From contig CAXTVS010000054.1 in assembly GCA_964247735.1 (NCBI GenBank), forward strand, positions 1-21,752: DNA of 21,752 nucleotides, written 5' to 3'. This stretch comes from an uncultured Acetobacteraceae bacterium. Its GTDB lineage: Bacteria > Pseudomonadota > Alphaproteobacteria > Acetobacterales > Acetobacteraceae. Below, piece by piece: positions 2,333 to 19,110 of this stretch (within the stretch, counting starts at the first letter, position 1; the number at the start of each line of letters is the position of its first letter). Made by a program: the position numbers and the translations under genes. Below the pieces are notes generated by a model. That model saw only the letters and a list, made by a program, of their open reading frames with translations, made no database searches and was not told the origin of the DNA.

Positions 2333-2777
2333 GTGACTTGTTCCCTGTGCCGGACTGGTCTGTCGCCGTCTCGGCTATTCTCGTTACGTTTCCGTAAGCT
2401 TCACGTTCCGGTGCCGCCGTCAGGTGATCATGATCTGCTGTCCCCATGAGGTTTCGGACGCCGAAGGTTCTCGCCGCGACGGCGGATGCGGGATTCGGTG
2501 TGCGTCTGCGACGGAACCGGAATTACCCCGCGTGCCCGCGCCGTCCGCGCAACGTCCTCCAGCCATCCCACACCGTTATCCTGCGGCGCTTTCCATGCTC
2601 ATGCGCCGGATAAATCCACAGGTCAAACGAAAATGCATTTTCCTTGGGAATCGGTACGCCGCAGTTTCTTTGCTGCCACATGCGGCCACCGTGTCTCCGC
2701 AGTGCCGTCCCGGCGAAAGGCCTGGCGAGGCCGGAGCATGACCCGATCGACCGGGCGGTCCGATCGGGCGCGCGGAT

Positions 2778-3515: not shown

Positions 3516-3630
3516 GAAGACTCTGTAGCCGCTTTCCCCGCCTGCTGCCACGACTTTGCATATAATCGATGATCCATTGACTGATAGACTCTCCAGGTGC
3601 ACTTTCCCATGAGGTCACGGGAGGAGCACG
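3516..3630. promoter_or_regulatory. Divergent promoter/operator region between the GntR regulator gene and the FAH-dioxygenase-hydroxylase-decarboxylase operon.
   Basis: This 115-bp spacer is locally AT-richer than its surroundings. It holds a consensus TATAAT at 3561-3566 and a near-perfect 12-bp palindrome ATAATCGATGAT at 3562-3573. It also holds TTGACT at 3577-3582 and the palindrome GTGCAC at 3597-3602. A strong RBS, GGGAGGAG (3619-3626), sits 5 nt before ATG 3631. Which hexamers act as -35/-10 for each strand cannot be decided from sequence alone. Confidence 0.4.
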
Positions 3631-4527
<897 letters not shown>

Positions 4528-4600
4528 CCAGCGCAGCCCGTTCTTCCGACAAAGCCGGCAGGGCGTGGCAGGAGACGTGGGCCGACCGGAGGAAAACAGA

Positions 4601-5587: not shown

Positions 5588-5644
5588 GGGGCTGGTACTT
5601 GGCAACACGTCGAACACGATCGTCTCACGCCGGAGCAAGCAACG

Positions 5645-7279
5645 ATGCAGACTGAAAGCGTGTACGACATCGTCCAGATCGGCTACGGGCCGGTCAGCCA
5701 GGTGCTGGCACTGATGATGGCGCGCCTCGGTTACCGCGTTGCGGTGATCGAGCGCTGGACCGAGCCGTACAGCCTGCCCCGTGCGGTCTGCATCGACCAC
5801 GAGGCGGCCCGGATCCTGCGCGCGATCGGGCTGAGCGAGAGCCTCGCCCGTGTGTCGCAGCCGGCGCCGCGCTACCAGTGGTTCAATGCCAACTGGGAGG
5901 AGCTGCTCTGCATCGACTGGAGCGCGGAGTCGGTGTCCGGCGGACCCGAGTCCAACTTCGTGCATCAGCCCAGCCTGGAGGCGGAGTTCCGGAAGGCCGT
6001 CCGCACCCATCCGAACGTGGAGCTGAACCTCGGCTGGGACTATGTCGGGCATGTCGACCGGGGCGACCAAGTCGAGGTCTCGCTGCGCGAGGTCGGCACC
6101 GGCCGCATGCAGACCCTGCACACACGCTATCTCGTGGGTGCCGATGGCGCCAACAGCCTCGTGCGCGAGCACCTGGGAATTGAGCGCGAGAACCGCGGCT
6201 TCCAGGCTGACTGGCTGGTCGTGGACATGAAGCTCAACCCGGGCGTCGTTCTCGACATCCCGGCGTGCGGACAGTACTGCAACCCGGCGCGGCCGACGAC
6301 GATCGTCCCGGGCGGCATGCATGACGGGCGCGTGTGCCGACGCTGGGAGTTCATGCGCCTGCCGAACGAGACGCGCGAGGAGCTGCAGAGCGAGGAGAAG
6401 GTCTGGTCGCTTCTCGAAGCCTGGGTGACGCGCGACCAGGCGGAGCTGGTGCGCTATGCCATCTATACCTTCCGCTCGCTGATCGCCGAGTCGTGGAACC
6501 GCGGCCGGGTGCTGCTGGTGGGCGACGCCGCGCACGTGATGCCGCCCTTCATGGGACAGGGGATGTGCGCCGGCATCCGCGACGCATGGAACCTGCGCTG
6601 GAAGCTCGACACCCTGCTGCGCGGCCTTGCCGACGACCGCCTGCTCGACAGCTACACCGCCGAGCGCAAGCCGCACGTCAGCGCCGTTATCGACGCCTCG
6701 ATCTACCTCGGCAAGGTGATCTGCATTGCTGATCCGGCGGAGGCCGCAGAACGCGACCGGGCCTTCAAGGCCGGAACGGCGGATCCGCTGCCGCCGTTTC
6801 CGCATCTGACTGCCGGGCTGCTGGCGCATGGACCGGACGCGGCGCCGGCCGGGCTGCTATCGCCGCACGGTCGGGTGCGCCGCAACGGACAGACCGGCCA
6901 GTGGGACGACGTGGTCGGACTCGGCTTCGTGGTGCTGCTGCGCGGCGCGAACCCGCACGGCCTGCTGCGACCGGACCAGCTGCGCATGCTGGACTTGCTG
7001 GGTGCGCAGGTGCTGCAGCTCGATGGCGCTTCGGGCGTCGACGCGCTGTCGGACCTGGACAACAAGTACGGCGCCTTCCTCGATGCACATGGTCTCGCCG
7101 GCTTGATCATGCGGCCGGACTTCTACGTGTTCGGCGGCGTGTCGCAGATGCGCGAGCTCCCAGCTCTGGTGGACGAGTTTCTGACGGTCATGGTCGGCAA
7201 CGGCGTTCGCCTGTCTGCCGCCGGCGACCAGCCGATCGACCTGAGCCACGTGCTGCGTCAGGACCAGCCTGCCGCGTGA
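5645..7279 (+). CDS. FAD-dependent aromatic-ring hydroxylase (group A flavoprotein monooxygenase; MhpA/PheA/TfdB/PcpB-type, ~544 aa).
   Basis: The N-terminus has a dinucleotide-binding fold (DIVQIGYGPVSQVLALMMARLGYRVAVIER). The conserved GD/DG core reads RVLLVGDAAHVMPPFMGQGMCAGIRDAWNLRWKL followed by LLDSYTAERKPHVSAVID. From memory this aligns closely with E. coli MhpA ([34 protein letters not shown]...YQQERRDHAKAMID). The RBS is GGAG, 9 nt upstream. Confidence 0.9.
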   Translation: MQTESVYDIVQIGYGPVSQVLALMMARLGYRVAVIERWTEPYSLPRAVCIDHEAARILRAIGLSESLARVSQPAPRYQWFNANWEELLCIDWSAESVSGGPESNFVHQPSLEAEFRKAVRTHPNVELNLGWDYVGHVDRGDQVEVSLREVGTGRMQTLHTRYLVGADGANSLVREHLGIERENRGFQADWLVVDMKLNPGVVLDIPACGQYCNPARPTTIVPGGMHDGRVCRRWEFMRLPNETREELQSEEKVWSLLEAWVTRDQAELVRYAIYTFRSLIAESWNRGRVLLVGDAAHVMPPFMGQGMCAGIRDAWNLRWKLDTLLRGLADDRLLDSYTAERKPHVSAVIDASIYLGKVICIADPAEAAERDRAFKAGTADPLPPFPHLTAGLLAHGPDAAPAGLLSPHGRVRRNGQTGQWDDVVGLGFVVLLRGANPHGLLRPDQLRMLDLLGAQVLQLDGASGVDALSDLDNKYGAFLDAHGLAGLIMRPDFYVFGGVSQMRELPALVDEFLTVMVGNGVRLSAAGDQPIDLSHVLRQDQPAA

Positions 7280-7298
7280 GCAGTATCGGAGTCGTGCC

Positions 7299-8273
7299 TT
7301 GACTGAGCAGCCCTTCCTGCCGCGTGTGGATGTGCACGCGCACTACCTTCCGGCCGGCTACCGCCGCGCTGCGGAGGCGGCAGGCCACCAACACCCGGAT
7401 GGAATGCCCGGCCTGCCGCGATGGGACGTGGACGCCGCGCTCGGCATGATGGATGGACTCAACATCCGCAGCGCCATGCTGTCCATCTCCTCTCCCGGCG
7501 TGCATTTCGGCGACGACCATGCGGCGCGCGCGCTGGCGCGCGAGGTGAACGAGGACGGCGCCCGGGCCGCCTCGGACCATCCGGGTCGCTTCGGATTATT
7601 CGCTGCGCTGCCGCTGCCCGACATCGACGGCTCCCTGGAAGAAGCCGCCTACGCCCTGGACGTGCTCGGGGCCGACGGGGTCACGGTCGAGACCAACCAC
7701 CACGGCCTCTACATGGGCGACCCGCAGCTCGACCCGCTGTTCGCCGAGCTCAACCGCCGGCGCGCCGTGGTGTTCATGCACCCTACCTCGCCCAGCTGTC
7801 CGTGCTGCCAGACGCTGTCGCTTGGCTATCCGCGGCCGATGATCGAGTTCATGTTCGAGACGACGCGTGCAGTCGCCAACCTGCTGCTGACCGGCACGCT
7901 GGACCGCTTCCCGGACATACGGCTGATCGTGCCGCATGCCGGCGCGGCGGTGCCGGTCCTGGCGGACCGGATCGCCGGCCTGTCGCCTGCCCTGACGTTG
8001 CCGAGCCCGGTGGAGCCGGATCGGCTCTTCGCCACCCTGCGTCGGCTGTATTACGACTTGGCGGGCTTTCCGCTGCCGCGTCTGGCACCGGCGCTGCTGC
8101 AGATCGCCGATCCGGGACGCATCCTCTACGGCAGCGACTGGCCGTTCACGCCGCTGCCGATCGCGACGCGCCTGGCCGGCGACATCGACGCCACGCCGCT
8201 GTTCGACGCGTCGCTGCGCCGCCGCATCCTGCAGGACAATGCCCTCGACCTGTTCCCACGCCTGCGCGGCTGA
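7299..8273 (+). CDS. Amidohydrolase-2 (ACMSD-family) metal-dependent non-oxidative decarboxylase/hydrolase. It is like gamma-resorcylate, 2,3-dihydroxybenzoate, 5-carboxyvanillate or salicylate decarboxylases.
   Basis: The N-terminal VDVHAHYLP (HxH metal motif) and C-terminal YGSDWPF are characteristic of PF04909. The product is 324 aa, a typical size. The start is TTG at 7299, with GGAG 7 nt upstream. It lies 20 nt after the hydroxylase stop, so it is probably co-transcribed. Confidence 0.8.
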   Translation: MTEQPFLPRVDVHAHYLPAGYRRAAEAAGHQHPDGMPGLPRWDVDAALGMMDGLNIRSAMLSISSPGVHFGDDHAARALAREVNEDGARAASDHPGRFGLFAALPLPDIDGSLEEAAYALDVLGADGVTVETNHHGLYMGDPQLDPLFAELNRRRAVVFMHPTSPSCPCCQTLSLGYPRPMIEFMFETTRAVANLLLTGTLDRFPDIRLIVPHAGAAVPVLADRIAGLSPALTLPSPVEPDRLFATLRRLYYDLAGFPLPRLAPALLQIADPGRILYGSDWPFTPLPIATRLAGDIDATPLFDASLRRRILQDNALDLFPRLRG

Positions 8274-8337
8274 AGGAGAAGACCGGAGTCGAAGCGGATC
8301 GCTGCCAGGACCGACACCACGCCCTGGTTCACCGGTC

Positions 8338-8355
8338 GCCGCCGACCGGCCGGCG
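8338..8355 (+). terminator. GC-rich hairpin 65 nt downstream of the decarboxylase stop. It is a weak candidate terminator for the aromatic operon.
   Basis: CCGGTCG-ccgc-CGACCGG forms a perfect 7-bp stem with a 4-nt loop. No T-tract follows. Confidence 0.2.
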
Positions 8356-8385
8356 GCACTCCGGATCCCGTCGAACGGTTGCCAA

Positions 8386-8442
8386 AGATGAGGGAACGCG
8401 TTTCTTGAAACACTGGGCGTACAGCTTTGGCGCCAAGCAGGA
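8386..8442. promoter_or_regulatory. Cluster of perfect palindromes in the unassigned spacer upstream of the thiolase operon. It is a candidate multi-site operator or promoter.
   Basis: Within 57 bp there are three perfect palindromes. They are AACGCGTT (8401-8408), GTTTCTTGAAAC (8406-8417, which contains TTGAAA) and TTGGCGCCAA (8433-8442). In addition, TTGCCAAAG (8386-8394) is inverted against CTTTGGC (8431-8437). This stretch is locally the AT-richest part of the 570-bp spacer. Confidence 0.3.
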
Positions 8443-8624
8443 CGGCCAGGTCAGCGGCTTGCGCCTGCCGTGTCGCCTTCTGCGAGAGTGGAGAGCGCGG
8501 TCTGGATGCGCAAGGCGGCGAGGCGCTACGGCGGGTCGAGGGGGCAGTCGGCCTGTCCTTCGCCGATCCCGGACGTCTGCTTCTGGCTTCCGTGCAGACC
8601 CGAGCACGGAGGTGGAGGCCGGGC

Positions 8625-8759
8625 ATGATGGACACGATCCCGCACAGCCTTCCGGCCTCGCCAGGCGCCGCTGCCGGGGCGATTGCGTTCGGCGGCGCCG
8701 GCGGGGTGGAGCGCCGGGCCGACTCGGGCGAGGACGTGCATGGTATGCACGCGGTCTGA
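8625..8759 (+). CDS. Possible small ORF (44 aa, Ala/Gly-rich) with a strong RBS. It could be a leader peptide or small protein, or a chance ORF.
   Basis: A tandem GGAGG..GGAGG (8607-8618) sits 6 nt upstream of ATGATG. The product would be MMDTIPHSLPASPGAAAGAIAFGGAGGVERRADSGEDVHGMHAV. GC3 is ~80%. No recognisable domain is present. It lies in the spacer before the thiolase gene. Confidence 0.15.
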   Translation: MMDTIPHSLPASPGAAAGAIAFGGAGGVERRADSGEDVHGMHAV

Positions 8760-8845
8760 CGCTTACTGACTGCGGCAGTGATGGAGAAGGCGCGACTGCC
8801 GCTGTCCGTCATGGTCGGCTACCAGGACACTGAGGACGAACGGTA

Positions 8846-10024
8846 ATGGCTGACAGGGACATCGTGATCGTCGGCGCGGCGCGCACGCCGGTCGGCAGCT
8901 TCAACGGCGCCTTCGCGGCCACGGCGGCGCACCTGCTGGGTGCGGCTGCGATCGGCGCGGCGCTGCGGCGCGCCGAGGTGGCGCCGGCCGAAGTGGATGA
9001 GGTGATCCTGGGTCAGGTTCTGACCGCCGCCCAGGGCCAGAACCCGGCACGCCAAGCGGCTCTTGCCGCAGGGCTGCCGCAGGAAGCCACCGCCTGGGGC
9101 ATCAACCAGGTGTGCGGTTCCGGCCTGCGCTCGGTGGCGCTCGGCATGCAGCAGGTCGCCGCCGGCGACGCGTCGGTGGTTGTTGCCGGCGGCCAGGAAA
9201 GCATGAGCCTGGCGCCGCACGCTGCCCACATGCGGGCGGGGCGGAAGATGGGCTCGATGTCCCTGGTCGACACCATGGTCGTGGACGGGCTGTGGGACGC
9301 CTTCAACGACTACCACATGGGCAACACGGCGGAGAACATCGCCACGCGCTGGCAGATCGGGCGGGCGGAGCAGGATGCGTTCGCCGCGCGGTCGCAGAAC
9401 AAGGCGGAGGCGGCGCGGGCGGCGGGCCGCTTCCGCGACGAGATCGTGCCGGTGACGGTCGGCAGCCGGCAGGGCGCGCGGCTTGTCGACGAGGACGAGC
9501 ACATCCGGCCGGGAACGACGATCGACGGCTTGTCGAAGCTGAAGCCCGCCTTCGACGGGACGGGCACCGTCACCGCCGGCAACGCGTCGGGCCTCAACGA
9601 CGGGGCCGCGGCCGTGGTGCTGATGACGGCGTCCGAGGCGGCGCGGCGCGGCCTCCTGCCGCTGGCGCGGATCGCGTCCTGGGCGACGGCGGGGGTCGAT
9701 CCCGCCTTCATGGGCACCGGGCCGGTCCCGGCCTCCCGCAGGGCGCTGGAGAAGGCCGGCTGGACCGTCGACGACCTCGATCTGGTCGAGTCCAACGAGG
9801 CGTTCGCAGCCCAGGCGTGCATGATCAACCACGAGATGGGCTGGGACCCGTCGATCGTGAACGTCAACGGCGGCGCCATCGCCATCGGCCACCCGATCGG
9901 CGCGTCGGGCGCCAGGGTGCTGGTGACGCTGCTGCACGAGATGCGTCGCCGGGACGCGGCGCGCGGCCTGGTGACCCTGTGCATCGGCGGCGGCATGGGC
10001 GTCGCGATGACGCTGGAGCGTTGA
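8846..10024 (+). CDS. Acetyl-CoA C-acetyltransferase (acetoacetyl-CoA thiolase, thiolase II; PhaA/AtoB-type).
   Basis: The product is 392 aa. The N-terminus reads IVIVGAARTPVGSFNGAF. The catalytic-Cys region reads INQVCGSGLRSV. The motif GQVLTAAQGQNPARQAALAAGLP is of the biosynthetic/acetoacetyl-CoA type rather than the PcaF/PaaJ type. The C-terminus reads GLVTLCIGGGMGVAMTLER. GAGGA lies 9 nt upstream of ATG 8846. Confidence 0.92.
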   Translation: MADRDIVIVGAARTPVGSFNGAFAATAAHLLGAAAIGAALRRAEVAPAEVDEVILGQVLTAAQGQNPARQAALAAGLPQEATAWGINQVCGSGLRSVALGMQQVAAGDASVVVAGGQESMSLAPHAAHMRAGRKMGSMSLVDTMVVDGLWDAFNDYHMGNTAENIATRWQIGRAEQDAFAARSQNKAEAARAAGRFRDEIVPVTVGSRQGARLVDEDEHIRPGTTIDGLSKLKPAFDGTGTVTAGNASGLNDGAAAVVLMTASEAARRGLLPLARIASWATAGVDPAFMGTGPVPASRRALEKAGWTVDDLDLVESNEAFAAQACMINHEMGWDPSIVNVNGGAIAIGHPIGASGARVLVTLLHEMRRRDAARGLVTLCIGGGMGVAMTLER

Positions 10025-10093
10025 CCCGTCTTTTCCCCCAAGCCTGTCGCCGCCCCCGCCGGGGCCGAGCCGATGCCAAGGTCGGACTGCACC

Positions 10094-10804
10094 ATGATGA
10101 CCAAGACCTATCCTGACGCGGACGCGGCGCTCGACGGCCTGCTGTCCGACGGCATGCTGATCGCCGCCGGCGGCTTCGGGCTGTGCGGCATCCCCGAGCG
10201 GCTGATCGCCGCGATCGAGCGGGCCGGCACCAGGCGCCTGCGCATTGCCTCCAACAACGCCGGCATCGACGGCGTCGGGCTCGGCCGCCTGCTTCGCTCG
10301 CGCCAGGTGGCGATGATGATCAGCTCCTATGTTGGGGAGAACAAGGAGTTCGAGCGCCAGTACCTGGCCGGCGAGCTGGAGGTGGAGTTCTGTCCGCAGG
10401 GGACGCTGGCCGAGCGGATGCGCGCCGGCGGTGCCGGCATCCCCGGCTTCTACACGCGCACCGGCGTCGGCACGCTGGCCGCCGAGGGCAAGGAGCACAA
10501 GACGTTCGGGGACCAGGTCTGCATCCTCGAGCGCGGCATCTTCGCCGACCTCGCGATCGTCAAGGCCTGGAAGGCCGACGGGACGGGCAACCTGGTGTTC
10601 CGCAAGACCGCGCGCAACTTCAACGTTCCCGCAGCCATGTGCGGGCGCGTCACGGTGGCGGAGGTGGAGGAGATCGTGCCCACCGGCACGCTTGATCCGG
10701 ACGGCGTGCACCTGCCGGGCGTGTTCGTGCAGCGCATCGTCTGCGGCGCGCCCTACGACAAGCGGATCGAGTTCCGCACGACCCGCTCGAGGGAGGTCGC
10801 CTGA
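10094..10804 (+). CDS. scoA: 3-oxoacid (succinyl-CoA:acetoacetate) CoA-transferase, subunit A.
   Basis: The protein is collinear, from memory, with B. subtilis ScoA and other ScoA/AtoD proteins: [93 protein letters not shown]. The start is placed at ATGATG 10094 by N-terminal alignment. ATG 10073 is possible but has no RBS. The stop overlaps the next start (TGATG). Confidence 0.88.
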
Positions 10805-11448
10805 TGCCCTGGACCCGCGACCAGATGGCCGCGCGCGCGGCCGGCGAGCTGCGCGACGGCTACACCGTCAACCTGGGCATCGGCATCCCGACCCTGGTGG
10901 CCAACAACATCCCTGCCGGCATGACGGTGACGCTACAGAGCGAGAACGGCATGCTGGGGATCGGTCCGTTCCCCTACGAGGACGAGGTGGATGCCGACCT
11001 GATCAACGCAGGCAAGCAGACCATCAGCGAGCTGCCCTCGTCGTCCTACTTCTCGTCCGCCGACAGCTTCGCGATGATCCGCGGCGGCCACATCGACCTC
11101 ACCGTGCTGGGGGCGATGGAGGTGGCCGAGACCGGCGACATCGCCAACTGGATGATCCCGGGGAAGATGGTGAAGGGAATGGGCGGCGCCATGGACCTGG
11201 TCGCGGGCGTCAGGAAGGTCATCGTGGTGATGGAGCACAACGCGAAGAACGGCGAGCCGAAGTTCGTGCCGCGCTGCACCCTGCCGCTCACCGGTCTGAA
11301 CGTGGTCGACATGATCGTCACCGACCTTTGCGTCTTCCGGCGGCCCGACCGCACACGCCCGTTCCGCCTGATCGAGCTGGCACCAGGAACCACGCAGGAC
11401 GAGGTCGCCGCACGCACGACCGCGCATTATGAAACGAGAATTGGCTGA
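10804..11448 (+). CDS. scoB: 3-oxoacid CoA-transferase, subunit B.
   Basis: The protein matches the ScoB/AtoA family, from memory of B. subtilis ScoB: [71 protein letters not shown] and [14 protein letters not shown]. The catalytic Glu sits in LQSENG. The gene is translationally coupled to scoA. Confidence 0.9.
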
Positions 11449-11559
11449 CAGGACCTGATCCGCTGACGATACGGGCAATTTAGCCGCTCGTCCGCGTTCG
11501 GCCCGGCGGAACTCCGTACGCGTCAACTACCGGCCGAACTGACGCAGCCGTGTGCGAAG

Positions 11560-11598
11560 TTGAAAGCCGTCGACTGGTCGAGAAAGGATCATTATAGA
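11560..11598 (+). promoter_or_regulatory. Candidate promoter/operator patch upstream of the MFS transporter gene.
   Basis: TTGAAA lies at 11560-11565. The perfect 12-bp palindrome TCGACTGGTCGA lies at 11570-11581. An AT-rich TATAGA lies at 11593-11598. This is unusually AT-rich for this genome. The hexamer spacing is not canonical, so no precise -35/-10 assignment is made. Confidence 0.25.
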
Positions 11599-11632
11599 AG
11601 CTGTAACGATCAAAACAGGACGGGGAAGAACG

Positions 11633-12865
11633 ATGCGCGATGTCTTGATGACGGGAGCTCCGGGCGACGTCGCGGAGTTGGATCACGACTGGCTGGCGGT
11701 CATTGCCGCCTCGATCGGCCTGATTTTCAGCGCCGGCACCCTGACGATCTATTCCTTCGGCGTGTTCGTGCATCCTCTGCACGCGCAGTTCGGCTGGAGC
11801 CGCACCCAGCTCGGGGGCGCCGTCGCGATCTCGCAGCTTGGACTGGCGGTGGCATCGCCGCTGTGGGGCTCGGCGATCGATCGCCTCGGCCCGCGGATCG
11901 TGCTGCTGGTCTCGGTGGTAATGATCTCGCTCCTGATCGCATCGCTGTCGCTGCTCACCCCGCATCTGTGGCATCTGTATCTGGCGTACGGCGCCATCCC
12001 GTTCCTGGCGGCCGGCGCCTCGCCGCTTGGCTATTCCGCCGTCCTGATCCGGCGCTTCGAACGCCATCTCGGTCTGGCGCTGGGCCTGGCAACCATGGGC
12101 GTCGGTTTAGGCGCCACCCTGCTTCCTCTCATTGCGCAGATCCTGGTCGGAACCTTCGGCTGGCGCGACGCCTACGCGATCATCGGCGTGATCACCGTGG
12201 TGATCGGTATACCGGCCGCCCTGGTCACCACGCGTCACGTGCGCGGTCCGGTGGCGCGCCGGAGCGACGTCGCCGCGCCGCCGGTCATGCCGCTGATGCG
12301 GACCGGGACCTTTATCCTGCTGTGCACGGTGTTCTTCCTGCTAGGCATCACCACCGTCGGCGTGCTGGCGCAGCTGGTGCCGATGATGATCGACCGCGGC
12401 TTCTCTCCGCCGGCGGCGGCCCGGATGGCGGCCCTGACCGGCCTCGCGGCGCTGGTCAGCCGGGGCGGCATCGGCTGGGTGCTGGACCGGGCGCAGGCGC
12501 CGCGCGTGGTCGCAGCCATCGCGGTGCTGGCTGCCGTCTCCTTCCTGCTGCTGGTGTTCGGCCCGACCCACGGCGCGAGCTACTTCGCGGTCGTGCTGCT
12601 GGGGGGAGCCATTGGCGCCGAGGTGAACTTCATCGCCTACCTGACCCGCCGCCACTTCCCGCAGATGGTGTACGGCCGCCTCTACGGCGTCGAGTTCGGC
12701 ATCTACCTCGTCGGCGGCGGGATCGGGCCGCTGCTGCTCGGGCTGAGCTTCGATCACATGGGCGGCTACACCCCAAGCCTGCTGCTATTCACCGTTCTGG
12801 TCCTAATCGCGGCCGGCTTCGCGCTGCGGATCCCGAGGCATGGCCTCCTCGCCGGCTCGCGTTGA
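11633..12865 (+). CDS. Major facilitator superfamily (MFS) transporter, 12-TMS type. Substrate unknown.
   Basis: The product is 410 aa, with ~12 hydrophobic segments arranged 6+6 around a central charged loop (TTRHVRGPVARRSDVAAPPVMPLMRTG). An MFS-like motif follows TMS2 (GSAIDRLGPRIVLL). The RBS is GGGGAAG. Confidence 0.85.
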   Translation: MRDVLMTGAPGDVAELDHDWLAVIAASIGLIFSAGTLTIYSFGVFVHPLHAQFGWSRTQLGGAVAISQLGLAVASPLWGSAIDRLGPRIVLLVSVVMISLLIASLSLLTPHLWHLYLAYGAIPFLAAGASPLGYSAVLIRRFERHLGLALGLATMGVGLGATLLPLIAQILVGTFGWRDAYAIIGVITVVIGIPAALVTTRHVRGPVARRSDVAAPPVMPLMRTGTFILLCTVFFLLGITTVGVLAQLVPMMIDRGFSPPAAARMAALTGLAALVSRGGIGWVLDRAQAPRVVAAIAVLAAVSFLLLVFGPTHGASYFAVVLLGGAIGAEVNFIAYLTRRHFPQMVYGRLYGVEFGIYLVGGGIGPLLLGLSFDHMGGYTPSLLLFTVLVLIAAGFALRIPRHGLLAGSR

Positions 12866-12989
12866 GCGGAAGCCCTGCAGCGTGGGTCTGCATCATCGAA
12901 CCTCAGGGATCGAAGAAGACAAACGTGTTCACGACGAGCAGGGGTTCCGGCCGTTGACGATGCGGGCGCCTGGATTTTTGGAAGACAGA

Positions 12990-14600
12990 ATGGCAGAAAC
13001 GTCTAGTAGCTTTCGGAACGACCGGCCTACGGGGCGGCGCGGATGGCGTCGTTCGCTGCTCGCCGCCATGACCCTGGCCGCCGCTGCCTTCGTTCCGGTC
13101 GCAGCCCGATCGGCAAGAGCGGATGCGCCAGCAACTGTGGCCGGCGACTTGGTTCTGGACGGCGTCACGATCGTCGATACCCGCACCGGTGCGCTTGCGC
13201 CGAACATGGCGGTCGTGGTGTCGGGCGGCAGGATCGCGCAGATCCTGCGCGCGCCCGTCGCCGTCGGTGCCTCGACCAGGCTGGTCGAGGCACAGGGCAA
13301 GTTCGTGGTGCCGGGCTTCAACGACTTGCACGCCCATCCTCTGGGCGACCCCGACCCGTCGAGCAGCCTCATCATGCTGCTGGTCAACGGAGTCACCGGC
13401 GTCCGTCAGATGTCAGGATCGCCGGAAATGCTGATGGACCGGAAGAACGGCAAGCTGCCCTCCGCCGGCGCGGCACCGGAGATCCTGGCGATGCCCGGGG
13501 CCATCTTCACCCGCCAGAACGCGCCCACCCCGGAGGCCGGCGTCGCGGAGGTGGACAGGCAGAAGACGGAAGGGGCGGACTTCATCAAGGTGGTTGATGT
13601 CTCGCCGTCGACCTTCTTTGCCGTTGGCGCGGAGGCGAAGAAGGTCGGGCTGCCGTTCGAGGGACATCTTCCCAACGGGGTTGATGCGGTCAAGGCCGCC
13701 GCGGCGGGCTACCGCTCGATTGAGCATCTGGGACCGTTCGACACGCTGCTAATCTCGTGCTCGACCGACGAGGACGCAATCCGCGCCTCGGTCGCTAGGC
13801 TGCCGGTGGCCAGCATCCCGTCCTTCATCCCCGGCTTCATGGTGCGCAAGATCGTCCGTGCGGCGATTTCCGAGCCGCTTCTTGCACGGGTAAAGTCCGA
13901 CCCGACCACGATCTCCCGGCTGCAGCACGTCGTCGACACCTTCAGCGAAGCCAAGTGCCGCAAGGTGGTGCAGGAGCTTTCGGCCAGTGGAACCTGGCAG
14001 GCGCCGACCCTGATCCGCGACCGCACAATGGATTTCGGTGACGATCCGGTCTACCGCAACGACCCGAACCTCCGCTACGTGGCGTCGCCGACGCGCGAGT
14101 TCTGGTTCGGACTGGCCCAGCGCTACTCGACCACGATCACGCCAAGCGACAAGGCCACGCTGTCGCAGTTCTGGAACCTGCAGCTCAAGCTGCTCAAGCT
14201 GCTCGACCAGTCGAACACGCCGATGATGGCTGGGTCGGATCTGGGCGGACAATGGGAAATACCGGGCTTCAGCCTGCACCAGGAATTCGACCTGCTGGCA
14301 CAGAACGGCATCGCGCCATTGAAGGTCCTGCAGATGACCACCCTCAACGGCGCCAGGTTCTTCGGCCGCGAGGCGAGCATGGGCACCGTCGAGCAGGGCA
14401 AGAACGCCAACCTGGTGTTGCTCGATGCCAACCCGATGGAGAGCGTCCAGAACCTGCACAGGATCGACGGCGTGGTTCGCGCCGGGACCTACTATTCGCG
14501 GCACGATCTCGACGCGATGAAGCAGATGGTGGAACAGCGGCTGGCATCCGGCGCGCTCGACGCCCAGTCCGAGGCGATTCCGGGTGGTGACAGCCGATAG
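12990..14600 (+). CDS. Metal-dependent amidohydrolase-superfamily hydrolase (TIM-barrel, PF01979/PF07969-like), with a Tat signal peptide that probably exports it to the periplasm.
   Basis: The N-terminus carries a twin-arginine motif followed by a hydrophobic region and an AxA site: GRRGWRRSLLAAMTLAAAAFVPVAARSARA|DAPA. The amidohydrolase N-terminal beta-sandwich (VDTRTGALAPNMAVVVSGGRIAQIL) and the HxH metal motif (VVPGFNDLHAHPL) are present. So is the conserved C-terminal EQGKNANLVLLDANP. The start is set at ATG 12990 (MAETSS). ATG 12960 and ATG 12840 are in-frame alternatives. Confidence 0.85.
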   Translation: MAETSSSFRNDRPTGRRGWRRSLLAAMTLAAAAFVPVAARSARADAPATVAGDLVLDGVTIVDTRTGALAPNMAVVVSGGRIAQILRAPVAVGASTRLVEAQGKFVVPGFNDLHAHPLGDPDPSSSLIMLLVNGVTGVRQMSGSPEMLMDRKNGKLPSAGAAPEILAMPGAIFTRQNAPTPEAGVAEVDRQKTEGADFIKVVDVSPSTFFAVGAEAKKVGLPFEGHLPNGVDAVKAAAAGYRSIEHLGPFDTLLISCSTDEDAIRASVARLPVASIPSFIPGFMVRKIVRAAISEPLLARVKSDPTTISRLQHVVDTFSEAKCRKVVQELSASGTWQAPTLIRDRTMDFGDDPVYRNDPNLRYVASPTREFWFGLAQRYSTTITPSDKATLSQFWNLQLKLLKLLDQSNTPMMAGSDLGGQWEIPGFSLHQEFDLLAQNGIAPLKVLQMTTLNGARFFGREASMGTVEQGKNANLVLLDANPMESVQNLHRIDGVVRAGTYYSRHDLDAMKQMVEQRLASGALDAQSEAIPGGDSR

Positions 14601-14730: not shown

Positions 14731-16593
14731 GTGCGCTTGGCGACTTTGACTTCCCTCACCTTGGAAGGACGACAGGACCTCCGGCCCGCCGTTGCCACCG
14801 GGCTCGGAGGCGTCCTGTTCCTGGTTGCGGCCGCGGCATTCCGATCCGGCGCGGCAGGGGCGATGTCGGACAGTGTTGCCGCGTCGCTGGGCATCGCCAC
14901 CTCCGGATGTGCCGCCGCGGTCTTGATGGTCAGGGCGCGCGTCATCCTGCTTCGGGCGGAGCACGAGGCGGCGCCTGCTGCGGCTGCGAACCGGAGGGCT
15001 AAGGCGCTGCGCCTGCGCGCCGGCCGTCTGGGCGGCTGGCAGCAGACGGCGCTCGGCGGCCTGATCGCGGCTGCCAGCACCTGGGCTGGAGCGTCCGCTC
15101 TCCTTCACGACACGAGCTGGAATGGTGGAACGGGGCAGGCAACGGCCGGTGGGATCGCGTTGCTGGTGGGCTCCTTCGCGCTTCTGGTGGTCGAGCGCCA
15201 TCTCGCGGCCCTCGCCCCGGTCGTCCTGCCGGAAGCGCCTGTCCTCGCCTGCCTGATCCGGGTGCCGATCGCGGTATCGGCGCTTTGCGGCGTCGGCTGC
15301 CTGATGCTCGGTGCAGGGATCGGCCTCGGCCGTCATGCCGGCCCGGCCTCGGCGATTCTTTGCCTCCCTGTGGCCGCCGAAATCGTCATCCGCGCCCTGG
15401 CGACTATGTTCGTGCCGTTCCCGCCGCCGGACGAAGCCCGGATGACGGTCCGGAGCGCGATCGCCGGCGCGATCGCCCTGCGACGTCCGCCGCCCGACGC
15501 GATGCGCGACCTGTTCGGCATCGATCTGTCGTACAGTTGTGCGCTCGCGTTCGTCCGCGCAGCCCTCGTGCCGGTGACGGCGGTGCTGGCGCTGATCGGG
15601 TGGGCGCTGTCCGGCGTCGAGGCCCTGCACCTAGACCAGCGCGGCGTCTATGAGCGGTTCGGCCAGCCGGTCGTGGTATTCGGCCCCGGACTGCACCTCC
15701 ATCTGCCCTGGCCGATCGGGCGGCTGCGTCCGGTGGAGTTCGGCGTGCTGCACGACGTTCCCGTCGCGTTCGCAGCTGGCGGGGGTCCAGCCGCGACCAC
15801 GTCGGCCCCGCCGGCGGCGGAGGCGGATCCTGGGCCTGCCGAGGACCGGCTCTGGAACGGAACCCGCGCCTCCGAAAGCGCCTACCTCGTCGCCAGCCTG
15901 TCGCGCGGCCGGCAGAGCTTCGAGAGCCTCGACATCGGCCTGCGCGTGGTCTACCGCGTCGGCCTGTCCGACGCCGCGGCGCTGGAGGCTGCCTTCGCCG
16001 TCGGCGATCCGCAGCGCCTAGTCCAGGCCAGGACCAGCCGGCTGCTGGCGCGCTACGTCGCCCACCACACCCTGCCGGACATGCTGGGATCCGGCCGCGC
16101 CGGCTTCGCGCGCGACATCGCCACGTCGCTGCAGGACGGGCTCGATGCCAGCCGGACCGGCCTGCAGGTGATGGCGATCGTGGTCGAGGCGATCCATCCG
16201 CCGGCCGGTGCCGCTGAGGCCTATCACGCCGTGCAGGCGGCCGAGGTCAACCGCCACACGACCATCGCCGAGCAGCAGGCAGAGTCGGCGCAGGCCGAGA
16301 TCGATGCGAGGCGCGACGCGACCAATGTCGCCAACGCCGCCGCGGCGAACGCTCGCGACGCGGTAGTCGATGCCGAGGTGGGCGCCACCGCGTTCGCCGC
16401 CGACCGCACCGCGGACGCGCGCAGCCCGGCCTCCTTCATCCTGGAGCGCCGCCTCGACAAGCTCGCGAGCGGGCTCGCGCACCGGAGGCTGCTGATCGTG
16501 GACCATCGCTTGGGAACGGCCGGCGTGCTGCTCGACCTGCGCTCTTCCGGCGGCGGCGCGATGCTTCTGCCGCCGCGCAGCCGCGAGCCATAG
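14731..16593 (+). CDS. HflK/HflC-like SPFH (band-7) protein fused to a ~280-aa polytopic N-terminal membrane domain of unknown family (SPFH-A).
   Basis: The proposed start is GTG 14731, 10 nt downstream of GGAGG (14716-14720). Residues 1 to ~280 contain about 6 hydrophobic helices (for example GLGGVLFLVAAAAF, IALLVGSFALLVV, LIRVPIAVSALCGVGCLMLGAGIGLG, ILCLPVAAEIVIRALATMFVPF). GC3 is high in this frame only. Next comes the canonical SPFH anchor and entry, LVPVTAVLALIGWALSGVEALHLDQRGVYERFGQPVVVFGPGLHLHLPWPI. An Ala-rich coiled-coil follows, then an HflK-like C-terminus FILERRLDKLASGLAHRRLLIVD. Confidence 0.8.
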   Translation: MRLATLTSLTLEGRQDLRPAVATGLGGVLFLVAAAAFRSGAAGAMSDSVAASLGIATSGCAAAVLMVRARVILLRAEHEAAPAAAANRRAKALRLRAGRLGGWQQTALGGLIAAASTWAGASALLHDTSWNGGTGQATAGGIALLVGSFALLVVERHLAALAPVVLPEAPVLACLIRVPIAVSALCGVGCLMLGAGIGLGRHAGPASAILCLPVAAEIVIRALATMFVPFPPPDEARMTVRSAIAGAIALRRPPPDAMRDLFGIDLSYSCALAFVRAALVPVTAVLALIGWALSGVEALHLDQRGVYERFGQPVVVFGPGLHLHLPWPIGRLRPVEFGVLHDVPVAFAAGGGPAATTSAPPAAEADPGPAEDRLWNGTRASESAYLVASLSRGRQSFESLDIGLRVVYRVGLSDAAALEAAFAVGDPQRLVQARTSRLLARYVAHHTLPDMLGSGRAGFARDIATSLQDGLDASRTGLQVMAIVVEAIHPPAGAAEAYHAVQAAEVNRHTTIAEQQAESAQAEIDARRDATNVANAAAANARDAVVDAEVGATAFAADRTADARSPASFILERRLDKLASGLAHRRLLIVDHRLGTAGVLLDLRSSGGGAMLLPPRSREP

Positions 16594-16601
16594 GAGCGGA
16601 C

Positions 16602-17660
16602 GTGTCTGGACATCGTCACCATGACCATGAGCACATTCATGGCGATCACCATGGTCACCGGCACGCGGTGCCAGAGGACGTTCCGGCGCGGCTACGCTGC
16701 ACCGGCCCTTTGATCGTTGTAGCTCTGATCGCGCTCCTGACCTTTTCCGCCACCTGCCTGACCGTCGTGGAACCGGGCCAGGCGGTGGTGCTGACCGCAT
16801 TCGGCGCACCGGTGCGGGTGATGACCGAGCCGGGCCTGACGCTGCGCTGGCCAGCGCCGTTTGAGGCGGTCGTGCCAGTCGATGTCCGACTGCGCACCAC
16901 GTCCACCGGCCTGCACGACGTCGGCACGCGCGACGGCCTACGCATCCTGGTGCAGGCCTATGTCGAGTGGCGGGTGCCCCCGGATGCCGGCCGCGTCGTC
17001 CAGTACCTCCAGGCGGTGCGCAACGCGCCGGACGAGGCGGCCGAGCAGCTGCGCAGCTACCTGGGGTCGTCGCTGGAGATCGTGGCGGCGCGCTACGACC
17101 TGTCGCAGCTGGTCAACACCGATCCGTCCAGGGTGCGGCTCGACGCGTTCGAGGACGTCCTCAAGGCCCACCTTCAGGCGCAGGTGCTCGCCGGATATGG
17201 AATCAGCATTCTGCATGTCGGGATCGAGCGCCTGACATTGCCGGGCGACACGTTGGAGGCAACCGTCACGCGCATGACGGCGGAGCGCAACACAGTTGCC
17301 GCACGCATCAACGCGGAGGGCGAGCGGGCCGCGTCGGAGATCGAATCGGACGCCTCGCGCGACGCACGGATCGTGGCCGCCAACGCGCGCGCCGAGGCGG
17401 CGCGGGTGGAGGCCAGGGCGGGGCTGCAGGCAGCCGACATCTATGCCGCCGCCTATAGCAGCGCGCCCGGGCTCTACACTCTGCTGCGCTCGCTCGACAT
17501 GCTGGGAACGGTGGTCGGGGACAACACGCGGCTGGTGCTGCGGACCGATGCCGCGCCGTTCGGTGCCTTCGTTTCCGGTCCGTCCGTCATGGCCCCAGCC
17601 GCCGCTTCAGACACCGTGCCGGGCGCTGCGCCAGCTCCGGCGTCGGGCCGGAAACGCTAG
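16602..17660 (+). CDS. HflC-like SPFH (band-7) protein with a His-rich N-terminal cytoplasmic tail (SPFH-B).
   Basis: The GTG start is 9 nt after the SPFH-A stop, and AGGAG overlaps that stop. The N-terminus reads (M)SGHRHHDHEHIHGDHHGHRHAVPEDVPARLR, with 11 His in 18 residues. A single TM follows (LIVVALIALLTFSATCLTVV). The SPFH core reads VEPGQAVVLTAFGAPVRVMTEPGLTLRWPAPFEAVVPVDVRL. An Ala/Arg-rich coiled-coil follows (ERNTVAARINAEGERAASEIE...ARAEAARVEARAG). The C-terminus is HflC-like (PGLYTLLRSLDMLGTVVGDNTRLVLRTD). Confidence 0.85.
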   Translation: MSGHRHHDHEHIHGDHHGHRHAVPEDVPARLRCTGPLIVVALIALLTFSATCLTVVEPGQAVVLTAFGAPVRVMTEPGLTLRWPAPFEAVVPVDVRLRTTSTGLHDVGTRDGLRILVQAYVEWRVPPDAGRVVQYLQAVRNAPDEAAEQLRSYLGSSLEIVAARYDLSQLVNTDPSRVRLDAFEDVLKAHLQAQVLAGYGISILHVGIERLTLPGDTLEATVTRMTAERNTVAARINAEGERAASEIESDASRDARIVAANARAEAARVEARAGLQAADIYAAAYSSAPGLYTLLRSLDMLGTVVGDNTRLVLRTDAAPFGAFVSGPSVMAPAAASDTVPGAAPAPASGRKR

Positions 17661-17662
17661 GG

Positions 17663-18730
17663 ATGGCTTCGACCGCGGCTGGATCCATCCGTGCCTTGAT
17701 ACATGGACCTCGGGCGCAGGGACCTTGGACGCAGGCGATCCGGCTTGCCTTCCGGGCGACGTTCGGCCTCGTGCTGGCGGCAGCCCTGGCATGGCCGTTC
17801 ACCAACATCACCGAGGTCCAGCCGGACAGCCGTGCGGTGGTGCTGCGCCTGGGACGGGTGGTGCGGGTGCAGGGGGCCGGCCTGCTGCTCGCCTGGCCGA
17901 GGCCGTTCGAGCGGATCGTGCTGCTACCTTCCGCAGAGCGCCAGATCGAGTTCTCGTTCGACCCGCTTCGGTCGCCAAGCGGCCCCGGGGGTACGTCGAC
18001 GGAGTGGGCGGTGCAGGCCGACCCGCGGCAGAACGCCGCGTTCTTCATGACGTCGGACGGGGTGGTCCACCTGACCGCGAGCGTGTTCTACCACATCGTC
18101 GATCCGGCCGAGTACGTGCTGGAGACCGGCCGCGTGCCGGCGGCCCTCAAGGCGCTCACCATGGCGAGCGTGGTCGCCCTCGCGGCGGCGCGCGACACCG
18201 ACACCCTGGTCGTTACCCGTGGCGGCACCGACCTGACGCAGGCCGACCGGATGCGGCGGGAGCGGCTGCGCATCGACCTGGCATCGGCAATCAACCGGCA
18301 GCTGGCCGAGCTGCGGCGGCTGGATGCCGGCCTCGGCGTCGAGATCAGCCGGGTCGACGTCGGCACCGCGCTGCCGAGCGGCGCCAAGGCCGCCTTCGAG
18401 GAGGTGCTGACTGCCGCTCAGCAGGCCGACTCACTAGTCGCCGAGGCGCACAGCGTGGCCATCCGGATCGAGCAGACCGCGCAGCAGAACCGGACTGCCC
18501 TGTTGGCCGAGGCCAGGGCCTCGGCCGACGGGCGCGTCGCCGCCGCCATCGCCCGCACCGCCTCGATCCGTACGCTGGCGCGTCCGGCCGGCGGCCTCGC
18601 CGGGCTCGCGCTGCTGACCGGCATCTACAACGACCGCATGCGCGCCATCCTGCACCAGGCTGGATCGGTGGACGTGTTCGACCCTCATAGCGGCACGTGG
18701 CTGGTGCTGCCTGGCCAGACGGCGCGCTGA
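17663..18730 (+). CDS. HflK/HflC-like SPFH (band-7) protein, third paralogue (SPFH-C).
   Basis: The ATG is 2 nt after the SPFH-B stop, so the genes are translationally coupled. There is a short N-terminal cytoplasmic segment and one TM (FGLVLAAALAWPF). The SPFH entry reads EVQPDSRAVVLRLGRVVRVQGAGLLLAWPRPFERIVLLP. A coiled-coil follows (EAHSVAIRIEQTAQQNRTALLAEARASADGRVAAAIA). The HflK/C-type C-terminus reads LLTGIYNDRMRAILHQAGSVDVFDP. Confidence 0.85.
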   Translation: MASTAAGSIRALIHGPRAQGPWTQAIRLAFRATFGLVLAAALAWPFTNITEVQPDSRAVVLRLGRVVRVQGAGLLLAWPRPFERIVLLPSAERQIEFSFDPLRSPSGPGGTSTEWAVQADPRQNAAFFMTSDGVVHLTASVFYHIVDPAEYVLETGRVPAALKALTMASVVALAAARDTDTLVVTRGGTDLTQADRMRRERLRIDLASAINRQLAELRRLDAGLGVEISRVDVGTALPSGAKAAFEEVLTAAQQADSLVAEAHSVAIRIEQTAQQNRTALLAEARASADGRVAAAIARTASIRTLARPAGGLAGLALLTGIYNDRMRAILHQAGSVDVFDPHSGTWLVLPGQTAR

Positions 18731-18792
18731 GCGGTTTCGCTGCGATGGACAGCGCCGGCGGCAATGGCCCGACCCTGGCGAGGACGCGCCGG

Positions 18793-18813
18793 GGCGGTCA
18801 TGCCGCCTCATTT
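18793..18813 (+). terminator. Candidate intrinsic terminator after the SPFH operon.
   Basis: GGCGG-tcatg-CCGCC is followed by TCATTTGGG, a GC stem with a short T-rich tail. It lies 63 nt after the SPFH-C stop. On the other strand it sits between the convergent alpha/beta-hydrolase gene end and the SPFH operon. Confidence 0.3.
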
Positions 18814-19110
18814 GGGCGTCTCGGCGCCCCGCGATCGGCCACCGGCAGCAGCACGTCCGCCTCAGGTCCTGGACGCGGTCGCGCGCGTCGCAGCCGATTT
18901 CCCGAACGACGTCCCGACCACGATGACGGCACAGGCGATCCTGCTGCGTACGGCGGCGGTGGGGCCAGCCTGTCCTCAGGTCGGCGAAGCCCTCTGCCGG
19001 TATCCGAAGCCTGCTTGCTTCGGCCTCCTGTCCGCAGGCGGGCCGGCCGCAGCCGGCCCGTGCGGAGATTACCGGGACGAGCCTCGCGAGCTCAAAAGCC
19101 CTCTTCCCGG

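Follow-up and report, generated by a model that had tools for sequence, protein, structure and literature searches.

We find that the HflC-like protein encoded in a 21,752-nucleotide stretch of DNA (the window, by which we mean the whole stretch analysed) begins with a genuine and non-random His-rich tract. This tail is probably the hallmark of a zinc-starvation module of three SPFH proteins and a P1B-type metal ATPase, in which the SPFH proteins would form a cage that holds the pump and the tails would bind zinc, possibly also copper. Judged from profile matches and gene order, the module consists of a polytopic HflK-like protein, the His-tailed HflC-like protein, a further HflK-like protein and a CPC-type P1B ATPase. 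The features of the window that bear on this reading are collected in Table 1.

Table 1 Features of the window around the His-tailed HflC-like protein.
Feature	Position	Strand	Basis
Amidohydrolase with Tat-like signal, upstream neighbour	12840..14600	+	Amidohydro_1/3
First module gene: six-helix polytopic N-domain, further TM helix and HflK-like SPFH domain, 620 aa (P0271)	14731..16593	+	profile matches
GGAG ribosome-binding site, 5 nt 5' of the GTG start	16593..16596	+	read from sequence
His-rich N-terminal tail, residues 1-21, MSGHRHHDHEHIHGDHHGHRH, 10 His	16602..16664	+	translation
HflC-like SPFH protein, 352 aa, middle module gene, orthologue of Pseudomonas PA2438-type gene	16602..17660	+	Band_7, E 1.4e-29
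Linker with juxtamembrane Arg (..ARLR) and single predicted TM helix (~residues 33-55)	16665..16766	+	hydrophobic segment
Third module gene: HflK-like SPFH protein, 355 aa, C-terminus intact	17663..18730	+	profile matches
Non-coding stretch where relatives' P1B ATPase gene begins by overlap; ATPase absent	18731..19110	.	sequence read

The tail is encoded by codons 16602..16664 (+), GTG TCT GGA CAT CGT CAC CAT GAC CAT GAG CAC ATT CAT GGC GAT CAC CAT GGT CAC CGG CAC. Its residues 4-21, HRHHDHEHIHGDHHGHRH, hold 10 His in 18 positions, specified by five CAT and five CAC codons; a preliminary description of this DNA counted 11. That such a tract is unlikely to arise by chance, as was also claimed, holds up: given that 2.4% of residues are His locally, its binomial probability is ~2e-12, none of 200 shuffles of the window exceeded 7 His per 18 residues, and the next-best 18-residue stretch across all six frames of the window has 5. 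The tract is in-frame and stop-free, and opens the 352-aa reading frame. The GGAG upstream of it shares a base with the TAG stop (16591-16593) that ends the preceding SPFH gene, the arrangement TAGGAG...GTG TTC/TCT GG(A/T) CA(C/T) is kept in five relatives (L001, L090, L091, L005 and L013), and the assignment of GTG at 16602 as the start codon is supported. Within its family the window's tail lies at the weak end, with 10 His, a longest His run of 2 (the family median is 5), and a core interrupted by Arg and Ile.

The tailed protein is clearly an SPFH protein, passing Band_7 (PF01145) at 103.8 bits against a gathering cut-off of 23.6 (residues 55-241), and it falls under the HflC equivalog cut-offs (95.3 against 134.4 bits for TIGR01932, 77.6 against 427 bits for NF008259). 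Among solved structures E. coli HflC is its closest relative (7vhp_G, E 3.9e-17), and the Pfam and NCBIfam matches of the tailed protein are SPFH/HflC-like only, with none to Ni/Co accessory families. Positive charge ahead of the membrane helix had suggested a cytoplasmic tail, and the family agrees, with a net charge of +2.8 over the 10 residues before the helix and +0.36 over the 12 after it. Because of this family-wide positive-inside bias the N-terminus is predicted to be cytoplasmic, and a tail that faces the cytoplasm is supported. We dropped a reading of the cluster as anti-phage defence, since PADLOC models matched neither the three SPFH proteins nor the amidohydrolase.

Although the preliminary description regarded such a tail as non-standard on an SPFH protein, it is instead standard in a large subfamily annotated 'HflC'. 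Comparison of orthologues showed the single TM helix to be preceded by a His/Asp/Gly tail in 118 of 120 homologue clusters and at 84 of 88 genomic loci, the tailed loci coming from Alpha-, Beta- and Gammaproteobacteria. Both untailed clusters have short or missing N-termini, and one of them is a truncated gene call. The family covers at least 565 species. Tails have a median of 12-13 His, and their cores are 60% His, 13% Gly and 13% Asp with essentially no Cys; sequence and length vary between relatives (cores of 9-37 residues) while composition is kept. Orthologues do not start at a downstream codon: GGAG and GTG are conserved and the tail is kept at those 84 loci. Nor does the tract look like a repeat free of selection, given the constant composition and the absence of a repeat array in the window. 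That the tail is translated and selected for its composition is supported. Ordinary HflC-like proteins (~30% identity) begin instead with a short Lys/Arg segment that holds 0-1 His. Some distant SPFH clades at ~30% identity are His-tailed as well (P0154, P0159, P0193, P0196, P0262 and P0270). Many Pseudomonas copies carry a His tail on both the HflC-like protein and the ATPase, and two loci (L043 and L057) on neither. Among the four untailed loci just one, on a Klebsiella plasmid, makes up for the lack with a His-rich N-terminus on its ATPase. We rejected the idea that one of the two proteins, HflC-like protein or ATPase, bears the tail in place of the other, as it fits that plasmid only.

The neighbours of the tailed gene are as constant as the tail. 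The first SPFH gene lies upstream at 80 of 81 loci, the third downstream at 86 of 88, and a P-type ATPase gene downstream at 83 of the 85 informative loci, with module stop and start codons overlapping or nearly so in the loci inspected. The partner is a P1B ATPase of ~640 aa (TIGR01525, 493-532 bits) with CPC and DKTGT motifs, for which the IB2 Zn/Cd subfamily is the best match among specific models; it has no HMA domain, and its N-terminus is His-poor in alphaproteobacterial copies. The window's trio has the same strand, tight spacing and family gene order, and all three proteins lie far below the HflK/HflC equivalog cut-offs. For the first of them the 620 aa are the call of the source record (the longest ORF begins at 14584), and an AF2 model gives its N-domain a pLDDT >90. 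Neither ftsH nor hflX was found in the window or in the loci inspected, and no NfeD partner is encoded in the window. The literature that we searched describes neither the tail nor an SPFH-ATPase partnership, including one of HmtA with SPFH proteins.

The closest known counterpart is the Pseudomonas locus PA2439-PA2438-PA2437-(PA2436)-hmtA(PA2435)-PA2434, which has the same SPFH gene order as the window. Against the copies of P. paraeruginosa ATCC 9027, used as reference in place of PAO1, the window's HflC-like protein shows 57% identity over 292 residues (E 3e-117), its first module protein 42% identity to the PA2439-like protein (E 3e-91) and its third 44% (E 1e-77); by these matches the window trio is orthologous to the PA2439-PA2438-PA2437 cluster. 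PA2438-type proteins of Pseudomonas have a tail of like kind (for example ..GHSHSHGHPDHHHDHDHDHDHDH..), and HmtA has a short His-rich N-terminus of its own, unlike the alphaproteobacterial ATPases. Unlike the Pseudomonas locus, the window lacks an ATPase, genes like PA2436 and PA2434, and a Zur-like box. In P. aeruginosa, PA2437-39 have been reported to rise 9-14x in a znuA mutant, their proteins to increase under zinc depletion, and Zur to shift the PA2439 promoter in a zinc-dependent manner; in one study, the level of hmtA mRNA itself was low and showed no repression by zinc. HmtA itself has been reported as a Zn/Cu importer, and cellular copper still rises when HmtA is over-expressed by itself in E. 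coli, so the pump is not strictly dependent on the trio.

Genomic context points the same way in other relatives. Genes for zur, znuABC and a TonB receptor lie near the module at five loci (L001, L006, L007, L090 and L091), a ZIP gene at L003, and SmtB and metallothionein genes at L006 and L007; by tblastn, a zinc gene occurs within 10 kb of the module at 20 of 89 loci. Sites resembling a Zur box (GTTATA-N-TATAAC, ≤2 mismatches) occur at 0.516 per kb upstream of the first SPFH gene against 0.029 per kb elsewhere (~18-fold), and at this threshold a site was found at 27 of 77 loci and not at the other 50. Genes of the hyp, ure, rcn or nik type for Ni/Co are absent from the window and from the annotated neighbourhoods. 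Nearby metal-responsive regulators and transporters, for which the preliminary description had suggested looking beyond the window, are therefore present in relatives; of its comparison with Ni/Co/Zn tracts, the metal-related role stands, in a zinc or possibly copper setting, and the Ni/Co part does not, as no such genes lie nearby. A metal-related role of the tail is strongly suggested by this context, which supports zinc, possibly copper, and not Ni/Co. From composition and genomic context we infer that the tail binds metal.

The window itself is an unusual member of the family. Among the 85 informative loci it alone has three intact SPFH genes without any ATPase; the other exception (L012) retains a partial one. 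A tblastn search of the window with the L001 ATPase, at E up to 10, gave no match and no remnant. Searches for GTTAT-N3-ATAAC, GTTATA-N-TATAAC (≤2 mismatches) and exact CGTTATA found no Zur box in the window, although these are crude patterns and a divergent site could be missed; zinc regulation of the window's copy is accordingly unsupported. Because both the ATPase and a recognizable Zur box are missing, we regard the arrangement as derived, with the trio either orphaned by rearrangement or served by a pump encoded elsewhere. The upstream amidohydrolase, which the preliminary description paired with the tailed protein, is an incidental neighbour: it adjoins the module at 1 of 89 loci, the window alone, and the conserved partner is the P-type ATPase.

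SPFH proteins (HflK/C, stomatin, prohibitin, flotillin) build membrane cages and have few known clients in bacteria, which include FtsH and NfeD. By analogy with the HflK/HflC cage around FtsH, the three SPFH proteins of the module would form a ring or cage holding the ATPase, and its many His tails would present a multivalent, moderate-affinity surface for Zn(II), possibly Cu, at the cytoplasmic face of the pump. Such a surface could accept or buffer metal, or could sense it and thereby tune the pump; the ATPase would in this way have a metal-binding domain supplied in trans. We hold this general reading to be the probable one. A more specific version is possible but doubtful: a heteromeric cage dedicated to a P1B ATPase that lacks its own metal-binding domain, with a His crown that receives or senses zinc in trans, in which the poly-His tails, at least twelve of them below the cage, would pull metal off the pump or gate it.

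Known systems resemble the proposed module in part. The E. coli HflK/HflC cage around FtsH (PDB 7VHP, 7WI3, 9CZ2) has two subunit types where the module has three, its HflK lacks the six-helix membrane domain of the first module protein, and its partner is FtsH, whereas the genomic partner of the module is a metal ATPase and not ftsH or hflX. Structural matches of the SPFH proteins also include QmcA-YbbJ (8Z5G) and stomatin-aquaporin 1 (9ZD2), SPFH oligomers with specific membrane partners, one of them a channel, that have neither a metal-binding tail nor a P-type ATPase client. His-rich metal-binding segments occur in the ZnuA loop, in cytoplasmic loops of ZIP and CDF proteins and at the N-termini of some P1B ATPases. 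The tail is like these zinc-transport segments in combining His with Asp/Glu/Gly and no Cys, in its association with zinc-uptake genes and in its predicted cytoplasmic location, and unlike them in being a putative metal-binding tail on a scaffold subunit present in many copies per assembly. It shares high His density within a short, probably disordered segment with the HypB N-terminus, the UreE and SlyD tails and the RcnA loop, and differs from them in zinc context, protein family and membrane location.

The alternatives to a pump-holding module concern either the client of the trio or the standing of this particular copy. The trio could be an alternative set of HflK/HflC-type proteins, made in zinc starvation, that modulate the zinc metalloprotease FtsH; the tails would then serve FtsH and not a transporter, for example by supplying or sensing zinc for its cytoplasmic protease domain. 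The closest solved relatives are indeed HflC and HflK as they occur in FtsH cages, publications on Pseudomonas interpret PA2437-39 as FtsH modulators on the basis of annotation, and the window's trio, intact without an ATPase, may for that reason have a pump-independent function. We nevertheless find this distinctly unlikely, in view of the equivalog scores of all three proteins, the polytopic domain foreign to HflK, and the linkage to the P1B ATPase, often through overlapping stop and start codons, and never, in the loci inspected, to ftsH or hflX. Somewhat different is the suggestion that the window's trio alone is an orphaned remnant, left by a rearrangement that took away the ATPase and the zinc-responsive promoter; its tail would then be a relic under drift that no longer has a metal role. 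The closest relatives, at 76-78% identity, retain zur-znuABC and the ATPase, a transposase fragment lies in the window at 173..748 (Pfam matched no mobile-element remnants at the 3' end), and to the window's unique lack of a pump and of a Zur-like box is added a short, atypical tail with His runs ≤2 and Arg/Ile interruptions. Against this, none of the three ORFs is shortened, all residues invariant in the family are kept, the tight spacing and ribosome-binding site are intact, 10 His in 18 residues remains extreme, and the window spans only 21.7 kb, so the ATPase may sit elsewhere in the genome. We rate the remnant reading as unlikely.

Two further proposals concern the tract itself, and we give both very little credence. 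A Ni/Co tract of the HypB/UreE/SlyD/RcnA kind would suit a His-rich composition, which is generally compatible with Ni/Co binding, but the window and the annotated neighbourhoods lack hydrogenase, urease, rcn and nik genes, it is zinc genes that recur near the module, and the partner ATPase has a CPC motif with a Zn/Cd model as its best specific match. It is just as improbable that the tract lies outside the functional protein, either because the in-frame GTG at codon 23 is the true start or because the tract is a functionless, slippage-prone low-complexity spacer. Its wide variation in length and sequence and the HG/HD dipeptide repeats of relatives, which suggest slippage, would fit; the conserved GGAG and GTG at 16593-16604, the open frame, the His-richness across three proteobacterial classes and the lack of a tail on HflC-like proteins outside the subfamily speak against it. 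Tandem Repeats Finder returned no DNA-level repeat array in the window, on which ground we also dropped the reading of the tract as a simple-sequence repeat.

The gene order ties a widespread SPFH trio (at least 565 species, with copies in Pseudomonas, Burkholderia and Bradyrhizobium and on plasmids) to a zinc-starvation P-type ATPase, and one subunit of the trio bears a conserved poly-His tail. HmtA-type P1B ATPases belong to an exporter family. If the tails do bind metal for the pump, the trio would become the first known example of an SPFH scaffold with a chemical part in transport, and this could help to explain HmtA-type import in zinc starvation. In the literature on HmtA the pump is regarded as stand-alone and the neighbouring genes as 'FtsH modulators'. 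A metal-binding scaffold would, if real, revise the view of this uptake route, which is relevant to how P. aeruginosa acquires zinc when the host withholds it. The name 'protease modulator HflC/HflK' is probably misleading for the family. As a minor point of annotation, gene callers sometimes clip the His tail.

The His-rich N-terminus in the window belongs to a 352-aa Band_7/SPFH protein (E = 1.4e-29) and is real, although the preliminary description had counted 11 His where the 18-residue stretch holds 10 (five CAT and five CAC codons). Every other 18-residue stretch in all six frames has ≤5 His, the His maximum per 18 residues never exceeded 7 in 200 shuffles of the window, and the binomial probability of the tract at the local His frequency of 2.4% is ~2e-12. 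Given this non-random His content, the absence of a repeat array at the tract with Tandem Repeats Finder, and the conserved ribosome-binding site and GTG layout (GGAG 5 nt before the start, partly shared with the TAG stop of the gene upstream, with TAGGAG...GTG-TTC/TCT-GGx-CAY kept in five relatives), the observation is confirmed, and both its improbability by chance and the proposed GTG start are upheld.

The 352-aa protein is HflC-like, falling below the NCBI HflC equivalog cut-offs (95 versus 134 bits), and its closest solved relative is Escherichia coli HflC from FtsH cage structures (E = 3.9e-17). Its gene lies between two same-strand SPFH genes, with gaps of 8 nt and 2 nt, and this trio is intact, retaining every family-invariant residue. 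The N-terminal membrane domain of the first protein has no Pfam match; an AlphaFold model (mean pLDDT 76, N-domain >90) predicts six long helices, then a seventh transmembrane (TM) helix, ahead of the SPFH domain, and charged residues that are invariant or near-invariant in the family (E155/R156, R177 and E217-x3-R221) lie within its hydrophobic helices.

Features of the window around the His-tailed gene
Feature	Position	Strand	Remark
Transposase fragment, IS4/IS5-type (DDE_Tnp_1, DUF4096)	173..748	+	Window 5' end
OprB porin, FAD monooxygenase, CoA-transferase subunit, MFS transporter	776..12865		Apparently catabolic and unrelated to the module
First SPFH gene, HflK-like, 620 aa	14731..16593	+	Source-record call; extra N-terminal membrane domain
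Antisense ORF	16224..16664	-	Starts MPVTMVIAMNVLMVMVTMS, a Met/Val-rich mirror of the His codons
His tract	16602..16664	+	MSGHRHHDHEHIHGDHHGHRH, residues 1-21 of the 352-aa ORF
His-tailed HflC-like SPFH gene, 352 aa	16602..17660	+	Band_7
Third SPFH gene, HflK-like, 355 aa	17663..18730	+	Complete to C-terminus
TetR regulator and alpha/beta hydrolase		-	Downstream of trio

Rather than an oddity of this protein, the tail is a family hallmark. Between start and TM helix, 118 of the 120 best homologue clusters (55–78% identity) carry 5–19 His, and one of the two tail-less clusters is a truncated gene call whose upstream open frame reads VFGHHHHHHGDDAGHDKHGHGHDGHGHGHHHH. Among loci with complete 5' ends, the open frame read from DNA has ≥5 His in 84/88 (median 13), and an exhaustive search over 1.84 billion cluster representatives showed the tail in most full-length relatives at ≥44% identity (P0132 was tail-less; P0126 and P0130 were not scorable). 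Orthologues thus do not start downstream of the tract, as the preliminary description had allowed they might; nor does the tract behave as a drifting simple-sequence repeat, since His-richness is maintained even as tails change in sequence and length, probably because HG/HD units slip. The tail core, 9–37 residues long with a median longest His run of 5, is 60% His, 13% Gly and 13% Asp, with practically no Cys. The window tail ranks among the weakest of the family: its His runs are ≤2 and Arg and Ile interrupt its core, which may be a sign of relaxed selection. Ordinary HflC-like proteins (~30% identity) start with few Lys/Arg and 0–1 His. His tails have also been gained by a small number of distant clades (P0154, P0159, P0189, P0193, P0196, P0262 and P0270; ~27–35% identity), of which the 721-aa P0189 may be a fusion. 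Across the family, net charge is +2.8 just N-terminal of the TM helix versus +0.36 C-terminal of it, a bias predicting a cytoplasmic tail, the orientation of HflC, in line with the earlier prediction. Gene callers clipped the tail in some homologues (locus L090; proteins P0011 and P0013); in L090 a spurious 40-aa gene (7827..7949, − strand) was called opposite the His-codon run, next to the call at 8001..8960 (+).

Relatives occur in at least 565 species (scan of one genome per species), the nearest being uncultured Acetobacteraceae, including a Lichenicoccus MAG, followed by Xanthobacteraceae, Rhizomicrobium, Bradyrhizobium, many Pseudomonas, Burkholderia/Paraburkholderia and Marinomonas. Over 89 non-redundant loci, the His-tailed gene is preceded by a polytopic HflK-like gene in 80/81 informative cases and followed by a second HflK-like gene in 86/88, after which comes a P-type ATPase gene in 83/85, its start codon usually overlapping the preceding stop. 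In Burkholderia ubonensis and Klebsiella aerogenes, plasmid copies occupy IS- or Tn3-flanked segments. The complete four-gene module is on conjugative plasmids there (pMSMB2035 and pYD-K10_1, respectively), bracketed by IS5/IS110/IS66 or Tn3 transposases, and therefore appears to be transferred horizontally in one piece. In two MAG loci (L012 and L021) the third SPFH gene is fragmented, with the ATPase also broken in L012, which could be module decay or assembly/frameshift errors.

The partner ATPase (~640 aa) is a P1B heavy-metal pump (TIGR01525, 493–532 bits) with CPC and DKTGT motifs, its best specific model being the IB2 Zn/Cd subfamily. It has no HMA domain, and its alphaproteobacterial N-terminus, with 0–3 His, is not His-rich either. 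A short His-rich ATPase N-terminus (7–13 His) occurs in the P. putida group, P. paraeruginosa, Marinomonas, some Paraburkholderia and the Klebsiella plasmid (L032–L041, L045, L052, L059, L076, L084 and L009). Although the Klebsiella copy, one of four tail-less loci, pairs such an ATPase with a tail-less HflC-like protein, either-or compensation between the two proteins fails, as Pseudomonas, Marinomonas and some Paraburkholderia ATPases have a His-rich N-terminus as well.

In the annotated loci of relatives, the neighbours of the module are zinc genes: a Fur-family regulator with ZnuA/ZnuB/ZnuC and a TonB receptor (L001, L006, L007, L090 and L091), a ZIP transporter straight after the ATPase (L003 and L004), and SmtB with bacterial metallothionein (L006 and L007). 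The putative metal-binding role first proposed for the tail fits this context, with zinc or copper as the metal, not nickel or cobalt. Zur-box-like elements (GTTATA-N-TATAAC, ≤2 mismatches) precede the first SPFH gene in 27/77 loci, at 0.516 per kb versus 0.029 per kb elsewhere, and are consistent with both the 17-bp palindromic Zur motif of Pseudomonas and the site GCGTTATAGTATATCAT defined by EMSA. Perfect sites also lie ~7.5–10 kb downstream of the module in Pseudomonas loci (P. syringae, P. cichorii, P. capsici, P. viridiflava and others; L042, L063, L064, L066, L068, L070, L072, L075, L077, L079, L080, L081, L085 and L089), suggesting that other Zur-regulated genes cluster nearby.

Judged by sequence, the module corresponds to P. 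aeruginosa PA2439-PA2438-PA2437-(PA2436)-hmtA, whose gene order is the same in P. paraeruginosa ATCC 9027 (L052); the window's first, His-tailed and third proteins share 42%, 57% and 44% identity with the L052 copies (E = 3e-91, 3e-117 and 1e-77). At the PA2436 position, L052 has a 144-aa ORF with a signal-peptide-like start (12076..12510, +); L059 has a gap of similar size, and alphaproteobacterial loci have overlapping genes and no gap. In P. aeruginosa, PA2437-39 are up 9–14-fold in a znuA mutant, their proteins rise on zinc depletion, and Zur gives a zinc-dependent shift of the PA2439 promoter. HmtA is reported as an importer of Zn and Cu. The literature searched treats it as a stand-alone transporter and its neighbours, from annotation, as FtsH modulators; we found none linking HmtA with SPFH proteins, and the only match for all three of SPFH, P-type ATPase and histidine-rich concerns Asgard archaeal transporters.

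On the model of HflK/C, which surrounds FtsH, and of other SPFH–client assemblies, the trio would most likely assemble into a ring or cage with the ATPase held within. Each HflC-like subunit having one His tail, the tails would together present a multivalent surface for binding Zn (or Cu) at the cytoplasmic face and, given the bare alphaproteobacterial ATPase N-terminus, could serve there in trans as the pump's metal-binding domain, whether acceptor, buffer or sensor. Obligate coupling of pump and trio is disfavoured: HmtA by itself, over-expressed in E. coli, raised copper content, and one study saw no repression of hmtA mRNA by zinc. The module is apparently an SPFH scaffold specialised for a metal pump, and its family is large and includes pathogens.

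The window has no ATPase gene; after the third SPFH gene come 380 non-coding nt and then an alpha/beta-hydrolase gene in convergent orientation, and no Zur-like box was found. Since the closest relatives (76–78% identity) keep the full zur-znuABC-trio-ATPase arrangement, this layout is derived. The exported amidohydrolase previously paired with the tail adjoins the module in the window locus only, the conserved partner being the P1B ATPase. Peptidase genes adjoin the module repeatedly, namely an S9 prolyl-oligopeptidase-like gene between zur and znuA (L001, L090 and L091) and M1 aminopeptidase (L007 and L091), M28 (L001) and S46/M23/M16 (L003) genes, the window's neighbour likewise being a hydrolase, the amidohydrolase with its Tat-like signal; these associations may be due to chance or belong to a zinc-starvation response.
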